From the IMG/VR virus record IMGVR_UViG_3300005805_000049, positions 1 to 64,000 of that record: a DNA stretch of 64,000 nucleotides; one strand, given 5' to 3'. Numbering within the stretch: position 1 is the stretch's first letter; each line of letters begins with the position of its first letter. This DNA comes from a virus. Below are positions 11,201 to 57,393 of this stretch, in pieces. The notes below the pieces were generated by a model. The model ran no database searches, was not told where the DNA came from, and was given only the letters and a program-made list of their open reading frames with translations. Made by a program: the position numbers and the translations under genes.

Positions 11201-14200
11201 AGCGGGTTGAATACTATACAGTGTTAAATGCTCTTGAACAACAAGCAAGAGATCTAACAATTCCAGATGCTAATGGACTGGATCGTTTTAAAAATGGAAT
11301 ATTTGCAGATCCTTTCAATAGTCATAACATTGGTAATGTCTCTGATATCGAATACAAAATTTCAATTGACAAGGACGAAACAGTAGCAAGACCATACATT
11401 CAACGTCATGATGTGGATTTTGCGTTCAATAGTGCAAACTCTTCTAATGTTCAAGTAACAGGTCCAATCGTCACGTTGCCATATACAGATGAACTGTATA
11501 TTACACAACGATTTGCAACAAAAACCAGAATTGCTTCAGAATCTTTTTGGCAATGGAATGGTTTAGTTGACTTATACCCTTCATATGATTTCTTCAGGGA
11601 TGAAGATCAAGATCCCGATGTAAACATCACGTTGGACCTTGCTTCACCTTGGCAAAATTTTGAGAACTCGCCATTTGGATCGTTATATGGTGATTGGAGA
11701 GAAGTTTCTCGTACTGTTACACCAGTTACAACAACATCAACAACAACATCGCCAACTAGCATAACTACGACAACTACAACAACCACAACGTCTACTAGTA
11801 ACCAGGCAAGGACTGTAACTGGAATCAACGTAGATACTTTTTCAGAAAACTATGAGATTGGCAACTACATTACTGATGTGTCGGTCAATCCATACATGAG
11901 AAGCAGATTGGTGGCATTTGTTGCTCGTACTATGAAGCCAAACACCACGTTGCATGCATTCTTTGATGACGTTAACGTTGATGCTCATTGTGCTCCTGGA
12001 GTCTTATCGGGAGTGACTTCAGTTGCTGAAGGTCAGGAAAATCGAATTGTTAATCAAAATGGTAGTTTTGGAGCCCCTCTAGTATCCGATTCTACAGGAT
12101 TTGTTTGCGGATTGTTTAGAATCCCAGAACGGACATTTAGAACAGGAGATAGGATATTCCAGCTGGTCAATGTTGATGATTTAGAAGTTGGAAAGTCGTC
12201 TATTATAACCTCTTCAAAAGCAAGATACACAGCAGATAACCTTGCAGTAACAACGCAAACGACTACATTAACTGCCATACAACCAAATATTGGTATTCAA
12301 CAGAATACGGAAACTCGTACACAAGTTAACACGTCCACGAGTGTACAAACAGTCACCTTGCCTGTATATACTCCAGTTGAAGAATCTGGCGGTGGCGACG
12401 GCGGTGGCGGTGGCGATCCAGTAGCACAATCATTTTCGATTGAATCACTTCCTGCTGCAATTTCAAGTGTGTTTATATCAAAAGTGGGAGTATTTTTCCA
12501 GCAGAAAGATCCTTCATTAGGTTGCACTTTATATATTTGTGAAATGGTTAATGGGTTCCCAGACGCTAACAAGATCGTTGCTAAAGCGTATCTGCCTTCA
12601 TCCGCTATAAGTGTCAGCGATGATTCAACGGCAGAAACGATATTCACATTAGAACATCCAGTATGCTTACTATCAAATTATGATTATACATTTGTAATTC
12701 AGCCAGATGCCAACTCCCCTGAATATGTCGTTTGGACTGCAGAAACTGGTAGCTTCGATGTTGTCACTAATGAGCAAGTGTTCGTCAATCCTTATATTGG
12801 AATGATGTTCCTGTCTGCCAACTCTAAAACGTGGACTCAATATCAAAAGGAAGACTTGAAATTTAAGCTTTATCGCTGCAAATTTACATCTCGAAGTGGG
12901 CGCGCAGTATTTAAAAATGAAACAGATGAATACATAACTGCTGAAGGATTCACTCGTGCAAGCTCGACAAACGGCATTCGTGTCGGTGACGTGGTGTTTA
13001 CAGTTAATGGGTCTATAAGTGTGTTTACAAATGAAAACGTTGTAGCAAACACATTGAAGAGTTCAGTGTATGGAAGAATACAATACGTAAACGAAGCGAG
13101 CGGCGAACTGTGGTTGGATTCTTCTACTGCAACTTCTGGGTCATTCTTCTCTAATACAACGAATCCAGTGATTGCTGTATACAGAACACCAGATGCTTCA
13201 AATGTTCAGACTATAAATGCTACCTCATTGGTTGCATATTCTAACGTGAGTAGCGTTGATAATCTAAAATATCATGCTGTAGTGCCAAAATTTGGAGTAA
13301 TTGAACCTTCCAAAACCTCGTTAATATACCAATTTAAAGGAACTTCTTCTGCAAATGTTGCAGATACAAGATTCCAAAACGTCGTTAATGGACGGGAATA
13401 TGAGTTCAAAGATTATCAAAGACATGCAATGTCTAGATCCAATGAAATTTTAAGCCTCAATCAAAACAAATCATCAGAATTTGCAATAACATTGCAGTCT
13501 CAGTCTGAGTACGTTTCACCAGTAGTTAGCTTAAAAAAGAAGTCCATGCTATTCATTGAGAACTTAATAAACAATGATGCAACTAACGAGCATACTAGAT
13601 ATGGAAACGCATTAACAAAATACGTATCTAAAAGAATTGTTCTAGCTGATGGTCAAGAAGCAGAAGATCTTAAAGTACTAATAACTGCTTACAGGCCAGC
13701 TTCCACAAATATCAAGGTATATGCAAAGTTTTTGAATAACCAAGATCCAGAACAGTTTGATGATAAAGTTTGGACTGAGTTGCAGTATGATAACGGAGGA
13801 GAGTTAGTATACTCATCTCCATCTTCAACGGATAATTACATTGAATATGAATTCTCAGTCCCTTCAACAAACTCAGTTGCATTTGCAGCATTTGCTAACA
13901 ATTCGACAAATCCATACAATCCATTGTCTGGAGGAATTACGATTGAAAGTGGATCAACAGTTATAAATGCAAAACAGCATTCTTTTAATGCAAATACTTC
14001 AGTCAATAATACAAATGATACAATAGTAATTACTGACGCAAACACTTATTTCAGTGTTGGAGATCCAGTGATATATAATGTATCTAGTGGAAACACTGCT
14101 ATCAGTGGATTGGTCGCTGGTAATAAGTATTATGTGTCGTTTGCAAACACTACCCAGATTGCTTTATCTGAAAGCAGAACAGGAGCAAATGTTAATATAG

Positions 14201-50118: not shown

Positions 50119-50943
50119 ATGTACTATTTAATGATAAAAGAGATCGAGCAAACAGGCATGAAGTACTTGTGTAAGAGAAAGTTTAATCCCGCTGACGAAA
50201 ACGACCATTTAAATTACAAAGGATCTGGGGTTTTATGGCGTAGGATTTTGAAAGCTCATCCTGAATATACGATTAAAACTACCGTTCTAGGACTTTTTTC
50301 AAAAGAGCAATTAAAGATACAAGGGTTGTACTACAGTGAACTATACAATATTGTAGAAGACTCTCAGTGGGCAAATTTCATTAACGAAGTTGGCGATGGA
50401 GGTGACACGTCAAAAACCCCCGGATACATTGAAGCGATGAAAAATAGGGTTCCAGATCCTTTGAATGGAAAAAGAAAAACGATCCATCACCCAGCAACAG
50501 GAGAAGTGAGAAGAATTCTTCCAGACACACCATTGCCTGAAGGGTTTGTTTGGGGTAACTGTAAAGGGAAAGGGTTTGGGCCGCGTAAAGGCAGTACTGT
50601 AGTTTATCATAACGGCACTCAAAAAATTTACGTACCAAAGGGCGAGTCCCCGCCACCTGGGTTTAAGAAAGGGCTTCACTATGAAGGAACAACAAAGGGC
50701 AAGATCGGCTATTTTAATCCTGAAACTGGGCACAAAACATACCTCCAGGAAAGTGATGTGCCACCACAAGGATATGTTAAAGGTCTACCGCCAACAACAG
50801 GAAAGTTGATTCGGACCCCGCATGGGGTGTATAATTCAGTGCAGCAGTGTATGAGATCATTAAATCTTACACGCTATCAAGTTGAGCAAAATATCAAGTA
50901 TAAAGAAGGATGGAAATATGAATCAATCACCAAGAGCTTATAA
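50119..50943 (+). mobile_element. Free-standing Seg-like (GIY-YIG-related) homing endonuclease
   Basis: YYLMIK...TGMKYLCK...YKGSG..W N-terminal domain; three P.G(F/Y)..G C-terminal repeats; T4-type regulatory hairpin upstream. Confidence 0.7.
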
Positions 50944-51427
50944 ATGGGTAAGTACCAAGGAATATGTTGATGCTTTTCCTGTAGCATACCGTCAACATAA
51001 GGCGGACAGTCATTGCAATTTAATTCATGGGTATTCGTTTAGTATGAAGTTTTGGTTTGGTTGCGATACGCTCGATGCTCGAAACTGGTGTAGTGATTAC
51101 GGCGGCTTGAAGGAACTAAAAAATATGCTGGAAAGTCTGTTTGACCACACTCTACTGGTCGCTGAAGATGATCCAGAAATTGAAACATTTCTGTTGCTAC
51201 GAGACAAGAAGATGGCTAAGCTAACGATCCTTCCGAAGCTTGGTTGCGAGAGTCTTGCAGATTATCTGTATAAGTATGTTAATGGCGTATACATCCCTGA
51301 CATGTGGGGGCCAAGCGAAGCCCTGCGTCTATGGTGCTTCAGAGTAGAGGTTCGAGAGACTCAAGCTAATATGGCATTTCGTGAAGGCCACAGAGAGTGG
51401 AACGAAGACCTTTTTGAAGGAGTTTGA
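50918..51427 (+). CDS. queD: 6-carboxytetrahydropterin synthase QueD
   Basis: HCNLIHGY, DYGGLK, FDHT, G.E..A, EVRET. Confidence 0.88.
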   Translation: MNQSPRAYKWVSTKEYVDAFPVAYRQHKADSHCNLIHGYSFSMKFWFGCDTLDARNWCSDYGGLKELKNMLESLFDHTLLVAEDDPEIETFLLLRDKKMAKLTILPKLGCESLADYLYKYVNGVYIPDMWGPSEALRLWCFRVEVRETQANMAFREGHREWNEDLFEGV

Positions 51428-52314
51428 CAGTGTTTGGCAAAAACGAAATTATTGGACAGAAGTATTTTAATGATGTTAAAGACAATCAGCTGTTCGTCAC
51501 ATCGATGTTCTTTACCCTGCAAGGAGAAGGAGTTTATGCTGGCAAACCAGCACTGTTTATTCGTCTAGCAAAATGCAACCTTGCATGCAGTTTTTGCGAT
51601 ACGTTCTTTGATGACGGTGACTGGATGACGTTTGATCAAGTAGAAATGAAGATCGAACAAACAATTGATGACCACTTTGCAAAGCAAAAGATCGATCGTC
51701 CTGATTGGACGAGACACGGTCCTCTAATCTCTTATAAGAAGAAAATGGTACTAGTTATTACTGGTGGAGAACCAACTTTGCAGAAAAACATTGGTCCATT
51801 TCTCAATAAGATGAAAGATATCTTTCAACACACGCAGATTGAGACTAATGGAATTGTGTTTCAGCCATCAATTCCATTGGAAACGACGCTTGTGGTTTCA
51901 CCAAAGTGTCTGGAAAAGGATGGTAAGCCAGTTCGATACACCAAGCCAAATCAGCAGGTGTTGGATAGAGCGAAATGCTTGAAGTTTGTTGTTACAGCAG
52001 ATAAAGATAGCCCTTACCATACAATTCCTGAATGGGCATTTCAGTGGACAAATAGAGGGTCAAAGCCAATCTTTATTAGTCCAATGAATGTTTATAACGA
52101 TCAGCCAAAGAAGTCTAAACTACTGCGACAGTCAGGAGTCAATAGGATTGATATCGATCAAAGATCGACAGTTGACGAAATAATTTCGTTCTGGGAACCT
52201 GGATTGTTGAATATGCAAGCAAATCAACGTAATCATGAGTATGCAGCTGAATATTGTGTCAACAATGGGTTTACAATGAATCTACAAATGCATTTGTATG
52301 CTAGCCTTGCTTAA
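51424..52314 (+). CDS. queE: 7-carboxy-7-deazaguanine synthase QueE (radical SAM)
   Basis: FFTLQGEG..AGKPALFIRL..CNLACSFCDT, ITGGEP, IETNG, VSPK, LQMH. Start may be GTG at 51430. Confidence 0.92.
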   Translation: MTVFGKNEIIGQKYFNDVKDNQLFVTSMFFTLQGEGVYAGKPALFIRLAKCNLACSFCDTFFDDGDWMTFDQVEMKIEQTIDDHFAKQKIDRPDWTRHGPLISYKKKMVLVITGGEPTLQKNIGPFLNKMKDIFQHTQIETNGIVFQPSIPLETTLVVSPKCLEKDGKPVRYTKPNQQVLDRAKCLKFVVTADKDSPYHTIPEWAFQWTNRGSKPIFISPMNVYNDQPKKSKLLRQSGVNRIDIDQRSTVDEIISFWEPGLLNMQANQRNHEYAAEYCVNNGFTMNLQMHLYASLA

Positions 52315-52323
52315 GGAGGAATA

Positions 52324-52746
52324 ATGATATTTTCTTATGAAAGAACAGTTCGGTCAATTGAGCTGTTATCTGCTGAAATTGCACAGTCAGATACCAAATA
52401 CGACTATATCTGTGCATTAGTGCGCGGGGGAACAATTCCAGCAACAATGCTATCACATAAACTGAACATTCCAATGTTTACGATCAACTGTTCTCTACGT
52501 GATCATAAGATGTTGGATGCATCAAATCAGGTACATTGGTTTTTGCAAACGAAGAAAGTTTTAGTCGTTGACGACATCATTGATTCAGGAGAGTCTGCCC
52601 TAGCTGTTCGGCGAATGGCTGAACCTGCAAAGGTAGATTTTTGTGCTTTGGTGTACAATCAAGAAAGTGGGATCGAATGTAAACACTATGCGTTGCCAAT
52701 ACGTCGTTCGGTCGACAAACAATGGGTTGAATTTTTCTGGGAGTAA
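52324..52746 (+). CDS. Purine phosphoribosyltransferase (Gpt/XGPRT-like)
   Basis: RGG..PA..LSH, PRPP-binding VLVVDDIIDSG, C-term WV.F.WE as in Gpt. Confidence 0.88.
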   Translation: MIFSYERTVRSIELLSAEIAQSDTKYDYICALVRGGTIPATMLSHKLNIPMFTINCSLRDHKMLDASNQVHWFLQTKKVLVVDDIIDSGESALAVRRMAEPAKVDFCALVYNQESGIECKHYALPIRRSVDKQWVEFFWE

Positions 52747-52749
52747 ATA

Positions 52750-53445
52750 ATGGCTATTTCTGAAGTTATCAAGGCTAGGTTGAAAGATGCTGGCGTTCGT
52801 TATTTTGCTAATGACAACATTAGCAAATATATTCTCGAAGACGAAAGAGCAATGCTTGTAGATGAATTGACTGGTAAGTTTGAACATGTGTTGCAGTCTA
52901 TGGTGATTGATACAGTTAACGATCCCAATTCAGCGGAAACTGCTCGGCGTCTTGCAAAGATGTATGTGTATGAGTTATTCGAAGGTCGTTACTTTCCCCC
53001 TCCAGAAGTTACTGCATTTCCAAATGACGGATCGGCTGGTACTAAACCGTATCATGGACTATTGACAATTCGAGCAGAATTAAAGTCTATCTGTTCCCAT
53101 CACCACCAAACAGTTTCTGGAGTAGCATATATTGGAATTATTCCGAAGACCAAAGTAATTGGCCTTTCTAAGTATGTTCGTCTTGCTCAGCACTGCGCTC
53201 GACGAGGAACACTGCAGGAAGAACTGTGCAATGATATTGCTGAAACTATTATGCTAGCGACCGAATCGGAAAACGTTGCAGTGCACGTTGCAGCTGAACA
53301 TGGATGTTGCACCAATAGAGGCGTAATGGCAAAGTCGTCATTGACTCAAACCACAGTACTTCACGGAATGTTCTATATTAATTCTGTTAAGCAAGAGTTT
53401 TTTGATAACATCAAAATGCAGAGTCGGTTAGACGCTGTAGGCTGA
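52750..53445 (+). CDS. folE: GTP cyclohydrolase I FolE
   Basis: DPNS.ETA.R.AKMY, SICSHH, IGLSKY.R, LQE, HGC...RGV. Confidence 0.93.
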   Translation: MAISEVIKARLKDAGVRYFANDNISKYILEDERAMLVDELTGKFEHVLQSMVIDTVNDPNSAETARRLAKMYVYELFEGRYFPPPEVTAFPNDGSAGTKPYHGLLTIRAELKSICSHHHQTVSGVAYIGIIPKTKVIGLSKYVRLAQHCARRGTLQEELCNDIAETIMLATESENVAVHVAAEHGCCTNRGVMAKSSLTQTTVLHGMFYINSVKQEFFDNIKMQSRLDAVG

Positions 53446-53508: not shown

Positions 53509-53721
53509 ATGAATGATCTAACAAAGTATGCCAAAGCTGTTGACCAAGCTGCAAACTTGGTAGAAGCTCAACAGGCAATGGAAGTTCTGCTTAACCAGTT
53601 CAAGCATAAGAGTAAAGTCAAACTGTTTGAAAAGTACACACAGATGAAAGGTTCCAAGTCTCGTTTACAGAAATGGGCTTGGGACCTTGTTCTTGTTGGC
53701 TTCAATGAAAGGGTGATCTGA
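53509..53721 (+). CDS. Hypothetical protein (70 aa)
   Basis: AAGGAG RBS downstream of the early promoter. Confidence 0.65.
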   Translation: MNDLTKYAKAVDQAANLVEAQQAMEVLLNQFKHKSKVKLFEKYTQMKGSKSRLQKWAWDLVLVGFNERVI

Positions 53722-53722
53722 C

Positions 53723-54211
53723 ATGTCTAAGCGCTTGACTAACAAATGGACTGCCACTACTACCGAAGCTTTTGGAGACAACGAACAGACCAGAAAGGGT
53801 AACCTCGCTGAGTTGATGTACTACAAGTATGCAATTCCTCTATATGACCAAGTTCAGCATTTTCCCAGCGATCGGCAGAAGCAATTGCAGGGAGCTGACA
53901 TCGTTCTTTATCAGAACCACTGGTCTCGTCCATATACTGTGGACGTCAAAGCGAATATGATGAACAGAGGGTTGTTTTTTGTAGACACTTCTCCAGATGG
54001 TTGGCTTTTCAATCCAAGGAAGACCAATGACCGAGTTTGCCATGTTTGTGTAGAGACTGCATGGGCAATCGAGTATGATGCCAACGAGATGCGAAAGTTT
54101 ATTCGTAAGCAGAAGGCGAAAGGTCCGTTGATTGCATTTGATGCATTCAAGACCAAGTTTCCGTTCAAGGTACGTAAATTCAAGATGGAGAATGTTAATG
54201 CACAAGCATAA
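53723..54211 (+). CDS. PD-(D/E)XK nuclease-fold protein
   Basis: G..AE helix, QLQGAD, VDVK catalytic-like motif. Confidence 0.6.
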   Translation: MSKRLTNKWTATTTEAFGDNEQTRKGNLAELMYYKYAIPLYDQVQHFPSDRQKQLQGADIVLYQNHWSRPYTVDVKANMMNRGLFFVDTSPDGWLFNPRKTNDRVCHVCVETAWAIEYDANEMRKFIRKQKAKGPLIAFDAFKTKFPFKVRKFKMENVNAQA

Positions 54212-54563
54212 AATGATTTGGGTTCGCTTTCAGAAAGAAGGAATTCATAAGTATCCTCAAGCTCTAACCGATCCAAGGTTAGAGCAAGTTAGTTTCCTTG
54301 GTTATCCTCATCGTCATATGTTTCATATCAAGGTTTCGATCGAAGTATTTCATGATGATAGGGAGATTGAATTCATTCTATTCAAGAGAGAACTGGAGTC
54401 ATTGTATGGCAACGGTACTCTGCAGCTGGATTATAAGTCATGTGAAATGATTTGTGACGATCTATATAAATACCTAAATAGTAAATATCCTGGCAGAGAT
54501 TGTGTAATTGAAGTTTCTGAAGATGGTGAAAATGGTGCAATCTGCCACTATCCAAAGGAGTAA
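54198..54563 (+). CDS. Second QueD-like T-fold protein, DpdL-like (candidate CDG decarboxylase)
   Basis: LGYPHRHMF matches the LxxxHRHxF signature recalled for DpdL; also DREIEF, SCEM, VSEDGENG. Confidence 0.7.
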   Translation: MHKHKMIWVRFQKEGIHKYPQALTDPRLEQVSFLGYPHRHMFHIKVSIEVFHDDREIEFILFKRELESLYGNGTLQLDYKSCEMICDDLYKYLNSKYPGRDCVIEVSEDGENGAICHYPKE

Positions 54564-54567
54564 GTAA

Positions 54568-54891
54568 ATGGAAGACAAAGATTTTCTAGCGTTGGTTAAG
54601 AAGGTGCTGGAAGAGCAAACAAAGCCAAAACAAGTGCCAGTCGAGCAAGAGTTAAAAAAGTGGAAAAAAGCTGGATATACCCACACTGCAGAAACGAAGA
54701 ATACCCACGTTCTGCAGAAAAAGAAAGGTAAAGATCTTCATCAGATAACAATCCATCACAAGGATGGGATGGTTACTCACAATGAGCCTTTAACGTTGAT
54801 ACGTAAGCCGTCTGAAGAAATGAAAAAAGATGTTGAACACGCACGTAAAACCGTAGAAGCAATCAAGAGTAAGCGTAGAAAAATGAACTAA
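54568..54891 (+). CDS. Basic hypothetical protein
   Basis: AAGGAG RBS; TATAAATA at 54465-54472 upstream. Confidence 0.6.
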   Translation: MEDKDFLALVKKVLEEQTKPKQVPVEQELKKWKKAGYTHTAETKNTHVLQKKKGKDLHQITIHHKDGMVTHNEPLTLIRKPSEEMKKDVEHARKTVEAIKSKRRKMN

Positions 54892-54911: not shown

Positions 54912-55742
54912 ATGGATTTTTGTCATATTTCGCCTACCAAATATCTAACTACATTTTGTTCCAATCAACGCAGCCATCTTCTACTAGCCCATCTAGTAGA
55001 AGATGATCCTGTTTATAGGCAATGGTATATCGATAACAAGAACGCTAACCCAGAGACCACTTACATACTTGATAATAGTGCTTTTGAACTGTTTAAGCAA
55101 GGTAAGCCGATGTACAAATCGTCGAAACTTATTGAGATGGGCAAAGCAGTTGGTGCAGATTACATCGTGATGTCTGATTATCCAAATGAACCCTGGGAAA
55201 AGACTCGTGACGCTGCTGAACTACTCGGTCCACAATTCAAGGATGCTGGATTTGGTACATTCTATTGCCCTCAATCAACTATCGGTAATCTAAAGGAATT
55301 GATTCGCTCGTATTGGTGGGCTGCAAAGTCTCCACTAGTGGATTATATCGGGTTCTCTATTCTAGCAATTCCTAATGCATATTCTGTTGAACGAGACAAC
55401 AAACTACAGCGATTCTGTGCTCGATGGAAGTTTATGCTAACTTGTTCAGAGATTGGATTGTTACAAAAGATCTATGCAAACAAGAAGAAAGTGCATATGC
55501 TGGGAATGGTCGATGGACCAAATGAAATCTTACTGCTTGGCCGTTGGCACAAGATGATAGATACTTGGGACTCTTCTGCTGCTGTGTGGGCTGGGTTAAA
55601 CAACATCTCATTTGATCAGTCGCCAACTGGACTGATTAATGGTAAGTTTGAGACTCATGTAGACTTTAATCATAGCACAGCAACCGATCAGCAGATCGAA
55701 CTAGCCAAGCTAAACATCAACTACATTGATAGCCTATTCTAA
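54912..55742 (+). CDS. TGT-fold protein, divergent DpdA-like 7-deazaguanine transglycosylase
   Basis: ILDNSAFE (cf. DSGxF), internal SD, HMLG and DTWDSS motifs in TGT order; inside the que cluster. Confidence 0.7.
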   Translation: MDFCHISPTKYLTTFCSNQRSHLLLAHLVEDDPVYRQWYIDNKNANPETTYILDNSAFELFKQGKPMYKSSKLIEMGKAVGADYIVMSDYPNEPWEKTRDAAELLGPQFKDAGFGTFYCPQSTIGNLKELIRSYWWAAKSPLVDYIGFSILAIPNAYSVERDNKLQRFCARWKFMLTCSEIGLLQKIYANKKKVHMLGMVDGPNEILLLGRWHKMIDTWDSSAAVWAGLNNISFDQSPTGLINGKFETHVDFNHSTATDQQIELAKLNINYIDSLF

Positions 55743-55751
55743 GGAGTGATC

Positions 55752-56024
55752 ATGTTTAAATATGATGAAGACAAGACACTTGATCAGTGTCTGGAATACA
55801 TTCAATCAACATATAAGCAGCATTATGTCAATGACAAGGGCGTTCAGTTAATGGACCTATTCTTCAGTGATCCTGAAGAAGGTGTGGTATTTTGTAAGAC
55901 CAATGCTATTAAGTATCTGACGCGTTTTGGTAAGAAGGAAGGAAACAATAAGAAAGATCTATTGAAAGCGATGCACTACATTGTGCTATTAACACATTGT
56001 ATCAATAAAATGGAGCAACAATAA
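55752..56024 (+). CDS. DUF3310-like protein (T7 gp1.7 nucleotide-kinase-related family)
   Basis: HY...F...NAIKYL.R.GKK.G...DL.KA..Y. Confidence 0.75.
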   Translation: MFKYDEDKTLDQCLEYIQSTYKQHYVNDKGVQLMDLFFSDPEEGVVFCKTNAIKYLTRFGKKEGNNKKDLLKAMHYIVLLTHCINKMEQQ

Positions 56025-56518
56025 TGTCAATGATTCATATTAATGGAACATCGGATAGCAAGTTGTCGGTAGTTGATTCAGATCAGATTCAACCAAATGC
56101 CACGGACGTTCGTCTACACAAGGTGTTTAAAGTTAATGACGGAATGATGATTCTGGAAGACAACTATAAGCAACACCGATCAACAATTGAGGTTAAGCCT
56201 GATATTCAGGGATATTGGATTCTTCAGCCAGGTACATATGAAGTTGTAATGGAAGGCACTGTTACGATTGCTGAAGGAGAAGCTGGGTGGATTATTACTC
56301 GATCAACCTTGAACCGCAATGGAATTTTCATAACTTCTGGATTGTACGACAGTGGGTATTCTGGAGTAATGGCTGGGGCAATGCATGTTGGCGTTGGTCC
56401 TCTAAAGATTAAGCAGGGAACCAGAGTTGGCCAGTTCTTGCTATTCAATTCTGAGACGTTGCATAAGTACAATGGTTCGTATGGTACAGCCAGTGAACAT
56501 GATAAAAAATACAAATAA
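56024..56518 (+). CDS. dUTPase/dCTP deaminase trimeric-fold protein
   Basis: QPNA.DVRL, RSTL.R.G, GLYDSGYSG, RVGQ, YNG.Y. Confidence 0.8.
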   Translation: MSMIHINGTSDSKLSVVDSDQIQPNATDVRLHKVFKVNDGMMILEDNYKQHRSTIEVKPDIQGYWILQPGTYEVVMEGTVTIAEGEAGWIITRSTLNRNGIFITSGLYDSGYSGVMAGAMHVGVGPLKIKQGTRVGQFLLFNSETLHKYNGSYGTASEHDKKYK

Positions 56519-56532
56519 CAATGGAGTAAATT

Positions 56533-57393
56533 ATGGCTATTGAAATTAAAGTTCCGATGGAACAACTTAGAAAGAATAAGCTATTTCTCGCTGTTCCAAT
56601 GTATGGCGGAATGTGTGCAGGAATGTTTACTCGTTCGATTGCTGATCTATCGGCATTATGCGTTCGTTATGGCATTGAACTGAAGATGTATTTTCTGTTC
56701 AACGAATCGTTAATTCCTCGCGCAAGAAATTATTGTTGTGACGAATTCATGCGATCTGATTGTACGCATTTTATGTTTATTGATGCTGACATCGGGTTCA
56801 ATCCAAACGACGTAATTGCATTGATGGCGTTGCAGTCCGACGATTCGCCATACGATGTTATCGGAGGTCCTTATCCAAAGAAATGTATCTCTTGGGAAAA
56901 AATCAAGCTTGCTGTGGATAAAGGAATGGCTGACGAAGATCCAAATATTCTTGACAGATACGTTGGTGATTATGTATTTAATCCAAAAGGGGGTCAGCGA
57001 GAAATTCCATTGGGTGAACCGGTGGAGGTTCTAGAAATTGGTACAGGCTTCATGATGGTTCGCCGTCGAACATTTGAGACGTTTATTGAGAAGTTCCCTC
57101 AGTATTCGTATAAGCCAGACCACGTTCGAACAGAACATTTCGATGGGTCACGTGAAATCATGATGTACTTCCAATCAGAGATTGACCCGAAGTCAAAGCG
57201 CTATCTGTCAGAAGACTATTGGTTCTGCCAAAAAATTCAAGAAGCTGAGATGAAAACGTGGATTTGTCCGTGGATGAAACTGCAACACGTCGGTACAATG
57301 ATCTTTGGCGGATCATTAGTCGATCTTGCGCAGATTGGAGCATCTGCTACAGCTGATGCAGGTCAATTGAAGAAGAAAAAGCAGAACTCTTAA
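56533..57393 (+). CDS. GT-A fold glycosyltransferase-like protein
   Basis: ESLIPRARN, FMFIDAD (DxD), GTGFMMV.R, LSEDY.FC, L.HVG. Confidence 0.7.
   Translation: MAIEIKVPMEQLRKNKLFLAVPMYGGMCAGMFTRSIADLSALCVRYGIELKMYFLFNESLIPRARNYCCDEFMRSDCTHFMFIDADIGFNPNDVIALMALQSDDSPYDVIGGPYPKKCISWEKIKLAVDKGMADEDPNILDRYVGDYVFNPKGGQREIPLGEPVEVLEIGTGFMMVRRRTFETFIEKFPQYSYKPDHVRTEHFDGSREIMMYFQSEIDPKSKRYLSEDYWFCQKIQEAEMKTWICPWMKLQHVGTMIFGGSLVDLAQIGASATADAGQLKKKKQNS

Follow-up and report, generated by a model that had tools for sequence, protein, structure and literature searches.

A phosphoribosyltransferase gene conserved in viral que/dpd clusters, with a possible role in guanine recycling during 7-deazaguanine modification of phage DNA

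The phosphoribosyltransferase gene and its operon

The window analyzed here is the whole stretch of 64,000 nt that opens the IMG/VR virus record IMGVR_UViG_3300005805_000049 (positions 1 to 64,000); it is a portion of a T4-like phage contig (record length 126 kb, 74% complete by the CheckV estimate), with GC content of 36-43%. Our subject is a gene for a phosphoribosyltransferase (PRTase), 52324..52746 on the + strand, situated among que and dpd genes, i.e. genes of 7-deazaguanine modification of DNA. Its open reading frame (ORF) is intact: it starts with ATG, codes for 140 aa and has a strong ribosome-binding site, AAGGAGG, 5 nt 5′ of the start. An earlier, sequence-only reading of the window had described a ‘Gpt-like’ PRTase tightly packed between queE and folE. 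The packing is as described; the gene starts 9 nt past the queE stop (52314), the folE ATG (52750) lies 3 nt past the PRTase TAA, and the flanking genes match phrog_2076 and PF01227.

The protein passed the gathering threshold of Pfam family PF00156 Pribosyltran (37.1 bits, cut-off 26.3, E 2.4e-9), as the sole PF00156 match of the 126-kb record, and matched the PHROG family phrog_8995, ‘phosphoribosyl transferase’ (E 1.7e-13). The nearest PDB structures found by profile were those of 6-oxopurine PRTases: 7kl6, 1vdm, 4z1o, 4trb and Escherichia coli xanthine-guanine PRTase (XGPRT), with E from 9e-27 to 2e-16. ‘Gpt-like’ is, then, right as a lineage, and we assign the predicted protein to the type I PRTases of the Gpt/XGPRT lineage. 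Relatives were present in other assemblies at 98, 73, 55 and 48% identity; therefore, this is a conserved gene, not a chance ORF. When run on 1.84 billion proteins, a profile made of the PRTase and its first relatives recovered 14,221 representatives at E <= 0.001. Within its known family, the enzyme forms a new branch. Monophyly of the viral PRTases was not supported, as Campylobacterales and Sphingomonadales sequences nested among the viral ones (FastTree, 149 columns; cellular sample picked by a viral-derived pattern).

The motif for binding phosphoribosyl pyrophosphate (PRPP), VLVVDDIIDSGES, occupies residues 79-91, and the RGG loop is also legible in the sequence; D83, D84, D87 and G89 of the PRPP motif are invariant in the alignment of relatives, A1. 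The protein fits the pattern of the PRPP-binding loop, in which four hydrophobic and two acidic residues are followed by x-x-D/T-S/T-G-x-S/T. We aligned the window PRTase and 83 other viral sequences (n=84) to E. coli Gpt from NC_000913.3. The RGG loop, two Asp of the PRPP motif, the equivalent of Gpt Asp92 and the stacking Trp were invariant in 84/84 viral sequences, and the C-terminal W-x-E-F-x-W-E was retained (WVEFFWE in the window). The role of Gpt Asp92 at purine N7, as well as the roles of the stacking Trp134 and of the C-terminal W-I-E-x-P-W-D, we assume by analogy with XGPRT/HGPRT.

Genes of the cluster are all on the + strand, with few-base gaps between them:

50882..51427, +, QueD-like 6-carboxy-tetrahydropterin synthase (PF01242 E 2.6e-14; phrog_2389 E 7.1e-33)
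51424..52314, +, QueE-like radical SAM protein (phrog_2076 E 2.9e-51; PF04055 E 5.2e-9)
52324..52746, +, Gpt-lineage type I PRTase (PF00156, phrog_8995, NF006613 below cut-off, PDB matches; ribosome-binding site AAGGAGG)
52750..53445, +, FolE, GTP cyclohydrolase I (PF01227 E 1.4e-33; phrog_2197)
53509-53721, +, ORF with no family match
53723-54211, +, ORF of 162 aa overlapping the DpdL open frame (no Pfam or PHROG match)
54213..54563, +, DpdL-like QueD paralogue (T-fold), proposed decarboxylase of 7-carboxy-7-deazaguanine (CDG); frame open from 54132, probable start 54213
54568-54891, +, ORF between the DpdL and DpdA3 genes
54912..55742, +, DpdA3-like transglycosylase of predicted tRNA-guanine transglycosylase (TGT) fold, 276 aa (AlphaFold model, Foldseek, BLAST clustering)
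55746..56024, +, DUF3310 protein (PF11753 E 5.5e-10)
56024..56518, +, dCTP-deaminase/dUTPase-fold protein (PF22769 E 2.3e-13; PF00692 E 3.7e-6)

The protein encoded at 56024..56518 scored 90.3 bits with the dUTPase model NF002598, under its cut-off of 130. No QueC (PF06508 match) was found in the 126-kb record, 74% complete. Genes 5′ of the cluster code for gp47/gp46-type recombination nucleases, a staphylococcal-nuclease homologue, a DPBB lytic-transglycosylase protein and peptide deformylase; those 3′ of it are annotated as sliding clamp and clamp loader in the record of a syntenic Rhizobium phage. Scans of the cluster for consensus promoters and terminators gave no excess over shuffled expectation. 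An ORF of 286 aa with no Pfam match (56533-57393, family c35) is conserved between the dUTPase-fold and clamp genes in loci arranged as in the window, as well as in Rhizobium phage RHph_I1_18.

Association of the PRTase with que and dpd genes

A search for related loci with the PRTase as a single sequence gave no match, and alignment A1 was required instead; megablast of the cluster DNA against phage records gave no match either. An alignment-based scan of IMG/VR produced 409 relatives, and the best 80 loci made the viral sample (L006-L009, duplicates of other records, were removed before counting). Annotation of the loci relied on hidden Markov models, for which the window and five named phages were the source, and on an all-against-all ORF clustering, with exclusion of ORFs <60 aa and of ORFs >40% overlapped by longer ones. 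The control set consisted of the 30 nearest cellular loci (Sphingomonadales, Campylobacterales, a few Clostridia), where que genes were sought within 8 kb.

At least one of QueE, FolE, QueD and DpdL was encoded within 10 kb of the PRTase gene in 70/80 viral loci, versus a que gene in 0/30 cellular loci (Fisher p 1e-18). Linkage held upon dereplication at 70% identity, with 41/45 PRTase clusters being que-linked. QueE was found in 66 of the 80 loci, always on the strand of the PRTase. The pairing of the PRTase with que/dpd genes is not due to chance; the counts in viral and cellular loci, along with presence of the gene in three phages with complete guanine replacement (see below), strongly support functional membership of the PRTase in the 7-deazaguanine cluster.

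Two arrangements were seen. Class A comprises the window and loci L010-L014, L049, L074 and L080, with the T4-like arrangement of the window. Most loci fall into class B, where the order is PolB-c14-c12-c13-DpdL-c6-FolE-(GMP reductase)-PRTase-QueE-RNase H (c6, c12, c13 and c14 being ORF clusters).

Phages with complete guanine replacement

According to the parts of Cui 2023 (PMC10516641) drawn on here and below, complete replacement of G was reported for phiST (dDG), immuto_2-6A (fdPreQ1) and CP220 (dADG) and was attributed to DpdA3. A PRTase of the family described here is present in 3/3 of these phages: between QueE and FolE in immuto, 17 kb from QueE and the cluster in phiST, and about 27 kb from QueE in CP220. 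Presence and absence across named phages were scored with a PRTase profile, A7, to which the positives themselves belonged. No PRTase was detected with it in five phages with other DpdA types (phi-ST2, phi-Grn1, 9g, HVTV-1 and Rosebush), nor in ACP17 or RHph_I1_18; pf16 gave a weak match of 18.8 bits. The Rhizobium phage RHph_I1_18 has the syntenic order QueD-QueE-FolE-DpdL-DpdA3 without a PRTase.

Three tblastn queries against 50,697 phage records found the family in Campylobacter Firehammervirus (15 records), Pseudomonas PA5oct-like phages (11), Cellulophaga phiST-type phages (5), Flavobacterium immuto (4), Brevundimonas phages (2), Synechococcus BUCT-ZZ01 (1) and in three unannotated records. 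QueE is encoded in 6/6 complete named genomes with the PRTase (BUCT-ZZ01, phiST, immuto, CP220, PA5oct and MaInes). QueC is absent from the window, phiST, BUCT-ZZ01 and PA5oct, and present in immuto, CP220 and MaInes; immuto also has QueF. The PF00156 scan of CP220 gave 0 matches, a false negative, since both tblastn with the phiST PRTase as a query and the A7 profile recovered the gene. As PF01702 likewise missed DpdA3-type genes and the c12 genes described below, absence of these divergent phage families has to be judged with custom profiles or tblastn.

Gene order near the PRTase varies in the named phages. In CP220 (L123, 8992-11034) a 116-aa ORF and then a radical-SAM gene come after the PRTase; we rejected the radical-SAM gene as QueE with phrog_2076, the true QueE being at 12969-13760. 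In Brevundimonas phage MaInes (L125, 2654-7468) the beta and alpha subunits of ribonucleotide reductase (RNR), a dNMP kinase, FolE and the PRTase follow one another, with QueE and QueC 8-11 kb off.

Partner genes in the clusters

The DpdA3 gene of the window had no Pfam match, as befits DpdA3, a distant TGT-fold protein which the Pfam TGT model fails to pick up directly. Its AlphaFold (AF2) model had pLDDT of 86.4, and in a Foldseek comparison with PDB all matches listed were TGT or ArcTGT structures (best E 1.3e-8). By BLAST the protein grouped with the DpdA of immuto_2-6A and with CGPG_00065 of phiST, the protein named DpdA3 by Cui 2023 (PMC10516641). The DpdL-like protein matched phrog_17812 (E 1.1e-36, residues 25-139), is 35-60% identical to phiST and ACP17 proteins, and carries LGYPHRHMF, which matches LxxxHRHxF, the DpdL signature given in section 16 of Cui 2023 (PMC10516641). 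Because of the DpdL signature, the clustering of DpdA3 with the phiST protein and the absence of QueC, we predict that the cluster product is 7-deazaguanine in DNA, as in phiST.

Class B appeared initially to be without DpdA: a scan of five class-B genomes with PF01702 and the DpdA3 profile A3 gave no match. We dropped this reading upon inspection of c12, a family of 497 aa encoded between PolB and DpdL (L020-L066, e.g. L042:3916-5406) that the scan had missed. Its members have invariant GDSGGxQ and DCASP, which we take to be the TGT catalytic motifs; the middle residue, Phe, is nearly invariant, and an ESM-Atlas search provided a lead to a TGT-like cluster. Alignment of c12 with DpdA3 by hhalign had probability of only 13%. 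Thus, c12 is probably a further divergent DpdA subfamily, the TGT likeness being a lead, not proof. With the TGT fold of DpdA3 in class A and the c12 motifs in class B, both classes have a transglycosylase candidate.

Family c6 (340-370 aa) occurs in 41/80 PRTase loci, usually directly after DpdL (e.g. L051:7443-8540, in the range L019-L089; ACP17, L003:7969-8997; BUCT-ZZ01, L002:12852-14015). We considered c6 as a possible DpdA and ruled it out by its GT-B glycosyltransferase fold (hhalign with DpdA3, 0.5%). Where c6 is present, the final base may carry a further modification; c6 is lacking from the window's own cluster. Genes resembling those of epimerase, UDP-glucose dehydrogenase and cytidylyltransferase are often seen near c6.

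A bona fide GMP reductase is encoded in 11/80 loci (NF003470, 527 bits versus a cut-off of 397), e.g. L035:8772-9830, where it separates FolE from the PRTase, and directly adjoins the PRTase in 6/11. Together with the PRTase it is reminiscent of the TubE/TubD pair of tubercidin; it might either draw down GMP or deaminate a 7-deaza-GMP. A HIT-domain gene occurs in 17/80 loci (e.g. L052:3518-3928, PF01230 E 1.3e-8), directly adjoining the PRTase in 6/17. A protein consisting of DUF3310 only follows DpdA3 in class-A loci, and in RHph_I1_18 the domain is fused to DpdA3 (L004:11074-12342). In T7, the nucleotide kinase gp1.7 has the same domain at its C-terminus (residues 122-184; PF11753, E 4.5e-23), which links DpdA3 to a possible nucleotide-kinase module.

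Function of the PRTase

We favor, giving it about an even chance of being right, a role in guanine recycling: the PRTase would be an active 6-oxopurine-type enzyme, accessory to replacement by the DpdA3/DpdL 7-deazaguanine system, which returns the guanine released by DpdA3 to GTP. FolE, QueD and QueE would convert GTP to CDG; DpdL would take the carboxyl group off CDG; the TGT-fold DpdA3 would put this base in the place of guanine in phage DNA, with one guanine freed per swap. The PRTase would then use PRPP to turn the freed guanine into GMP, and host kinases would bring GMP to GTP and so back to FolE. Such recycling would strip away a competing substrate of the transglycosylase and close the loop from guanine through GTP and CDG to DNA. 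Guanine as the PRTase substrate, and the loop itself, we infer from several lines of evidence.

First, the 6-oxopurine PRTase motifs and the Asp92 equivalent (84/84) are kept, and the nearest structures are those of bona fide 6-oxopurine PRTases. Second, every cluster type has a transglycosylase that would set guanine free, or a candidate for one. Third, the same PRTase family accompanies dDG in phiST, dADG in CP220 and fdPreQ1 in immuto, and guanine is what these have in common. Fourth, the PRTase correlates with high flux, being found in 3/3 fully replaced phages and in 0/5 phages with other DpdA types. Fifth, it is strongly associated with GTP-consuming genes (70/80 versus 0/30 loci). The PRTase is also dispensable in RHph_I1_18 and absent in ACP17, which fits a job that a host enzyme can do as well.

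Several observations weigh against recycling. The best NCBIfam match of the window PRTase, xanthine PRTase NF006613, was at 47.2 bits, well below the equivalog cut-off of 138 (seven further viral or related sequences scored 31.9-69.2 bits). Gpt Lys115 is replaced by Asn in 75/84 viral sequences and Gpt Tyr63 by Arg in 81/84, making an ‘LRD’ motif, with the window included in both counts; an insertion of 3 residues with a conserved Lys/Arg precedes the stacking Trp. In Gpt, Lys115 is the 6-oxo contact and Ser-Tyr is part of the catalytic loop. Neighborhood, too, points elsewhere: the PRTase directly adjoins QueE in 18/66 loci and QueD in 15/29, and it adjoins a DpdA-like gene in 0/8 DpdA3 cases and 0/29 c12 cases. 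GMP reductase beside the PRTase (11/80 loci) would undo salvage towards GTP. The correlation with complete replacement rests on 8 phages, is confounded with DpdA subfamily and includes positives that were in the search profile. Finally, TubE shows that specificity for CDG is possible for a PRTase encoded within a FolE/QueD/QueE cluster that has no queC.

As to the altered residues, sphingomonad cellular relatives have the Asn and the insertion and lack the Arg, so that only the ‘LRD’ loop is virus-specific. We ruled out Asn in place of Lys115 as a marker of que linkage: PRTases of the Lys type are found in que clusters (immuto, L049, L074, L080), and the sphingomonad relatives carry Asn.

The sequence-only reading had put foremost a pre-replicative route to 7-deaza-dGTP, a possibility that we hold to be real, though a minority one. 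In a TubE-like manner, the PRTase would join CDG or another 7-substituted deazaguanine to PRPP; DpdL would decarboxylate the nucleotide; kinases, RNR and NDP kinase would lead to 7-deaza-dGTP, and the T4-type polymerase would incorporate it. DpdA3 would be left with residual G only, as a back-up, or would use another substrate, while the DUF3310 and dUTPase-fold neighbors would be a kinase and a remover of the canonical dNTP. The PRTase does sit in a deazaguanine cluster, where it adjoins QueE or QueD, the makers of CDG, and the loop and base-pocket residues are altered. In the parts of PMC6112128 drawn on here, TubE is a CDG-specific PRPP transferase from a queC-less FolE/QueD/QueE cluster with a decarboxylase and a GMP-reductase-family enzyme. 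The viral clusters repeat the tubercidin gene set (PRTase, DpdL and, in 11/80 loci, GMP reductase) and have in addition the HIT-domain gene (17/80 loci, adjoining the PRTase in 6). Kinase-like and NTP-pyrophosphatase-like genes also recur: DUF3310 and dUTPase-fold genes in the window, AAA_18 P-loop and MazG-like genes in phiST, an AAA_28/Tmk-like gene in immuto, and RNR with a dNMP kinase by FolE-PRTase in MaInes. Furthermore, replacement is complete in all three measured PRTase-bearing phages, dDG was not reconstituted in E. coli from DpdL and DpdA, and the ADG nucleoside was seen in cells infected with CP220 (Cui 2023, PMC10516641); for Campylobacter phages, Hutinet 2019 mentions that a route by way of modified dGTP had been put forward.

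What speaks against this route as the main one is that a TGT-fold or TGT-motif gene (DpdA3 or c12) is found in every cluster type and that RHph_I1_18 and ACP17 have the cluster without a PRTase. DpdL and DpdA of ACP17 failed in E. coli as well (Cui 2023, PMC10516641), so that a missing PRTase cannot explain the E. coli failure. There are three end products with one PRTase family, and free bases are the known substrates of QueC and QueF. The viral PRTases belong to the Gpt lineage, and the Asp that we assume to act on purine N7 is invariant, and 7-deazapurines have no N7. TubE, for its part, rejected plain 7-deazaguanine (PMC6112128). Recycling of guanine released by DpdA, which the sequence-only reading had named as an alternative, we grade as at least as likely as the pre-replicative route. 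The associations with que and dpd genes described above are expected under either of these two roles.

General purine salvage, with GMP and GTP made of bases from the breakdown of host nucleic acids and the que link reflecting a shared nucleotide-metabolism region, appears unlikely. The Gpt lineage of the PRTase would suit it, and so would the lack of que linkage in the nearest cellular relatives from Sphingomonadales and Campylobacterales (0/30). A further point for it is that 10/80 viral loci have no que gene in reach, one of them, L040, at the same T4-like position; however, the six que-less records checked were all fragments, only 3-11% complete, whereas all 6 complete named PRTase genomes encode QueE. 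The linkage also survives dereplication (41/45 clusters), and in the tblastn survey the family was confined to the phage lineages listed above and the three unannotated records.

Least of all do we expect that the product is a deazapurine ribonucleotide not meant for DNA, such as an inhibitor that acts on host metabolism in the manner of tubercidin, or the precursor of a glycosylated derivative: tubercidin and huimycin are precedents, the GT-B glycosyltransferase c6 is in 41/80 loci, usually beside DpdL, and the same loci repeatedly contain sugar-nucleotide genes and GMP reductase, but c6 is absent from the window's own cluster and the measured PRTase-bearing phages carry the base in their DNA (Cui 2023, PMC10516641).

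To account for the replacement of every guanine in phages of the DpdA3 type, post-replicative base exchange is the published model; its basis is the presence of DpdA3, and DpdA3 and DpdL activity could not be reconstituted in E. coli (Cui 2023, PMC10516641). The word ‘phosphoribosyl’ has 0 occurrences in the main text of that paper, and the literature searched (supplementary gene tables were outside the search) held no paper tying a PRTase to phage 7-deazaguanine modification. The window contains the known DpdA3/DpdL system plus a conserved component so far unreported, the PRTase. Since it occurs in all three phages with full replacement, lies within the operon in many uncultivated ones and is undiscussed in the literature searched, the PRTase is a candidate for the missing component, a concrete one that is cheap to test. 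If recycling is true, the PRTase would provide the step that lets exchange reach completion and would help to engineer fully 7-deaza DNA in vivo. If entry at the nucleotide level is true, the post-replicative model would be overturned for the DpdA3 subfamily, and the 100% replacement in phiST, immuto and CP220 would be explained.

Comparison with known systems

Pre-replicative replacement is known from T4, with hmC (hydroxymethylcytosine), a dCTPase and a dNMP kinase, and from the Z-genome of S-2L with PurZ, DatZ and MazZ: a new nucleotide is made, the canonical dNTP is removed and the polymerase incorporates the new one. The phage que clusters share with these systems kinase-like and NTP-pyrophosphatase-like genes. 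They differ in that no dGTP-specific hydrolase was identified in the que clusters and in that they have a transglycosylase, which T4 and S-2L are not known to have.

The Gpt-type 6-oxopurine PRTases (E. coli XGPRT, 1a95/1nul; 7kl6; Pyrococcus 1vdm; Sulfolobus GpT-1/GpT-2, 4trb/4z1o) have in common with the phage enzyme a size of 140-180 aa, the PRPP motif, the RGG loop, the stacking Trp and the C-terminal WxExPWE/D. The phage PRTase stands apart by its score under the xanthine PRTase cut-off, by Asn for Lys115, Arg for Tyr63 and the 3-residue insertion, and by being embedded in a que/dpd operon (0/30 among the nearest cellular loci).

TubE (tubercidin) and ToyH (toyocamycin) of Streptomyces were compared with the phage clusters by gene content alone. 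ToyH is the deazapurine PRTase of toyocamycin. In both cases a PRTase gene is within a FolE/QueD/QueE cluster; the tubercidin cluster, as far as the parts of PMC6112128 drawn on here describe it, also resembles the phage ones in having no QueC and in having a decarboxylase and a GMP-reductase-family enzyme. The products of the Streptomyces clusters are free nucleoside antibiotics, no transglycosylase is known from these clusters, and the decarboxylase TubF of tubercidin is of UbiD type whereas phage DpdL has a T-fold.

The window cluster also resembles the DpdA3/DpdL dDG system of phiST and the DpdA3 systems of immuto_2-6A and CP220, all three of these phages carrying the same PRTase family. 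The window shares with phiST FolE, QueD, QueE, the DpdL signature, the DpdA3-type TGT-fold gene and the absence of QueC. In phiST and CP220 the PRTase gene is distant from QueE (17 kb and about 27 kb, respectively), whereas the window and immuto have it within the operon.

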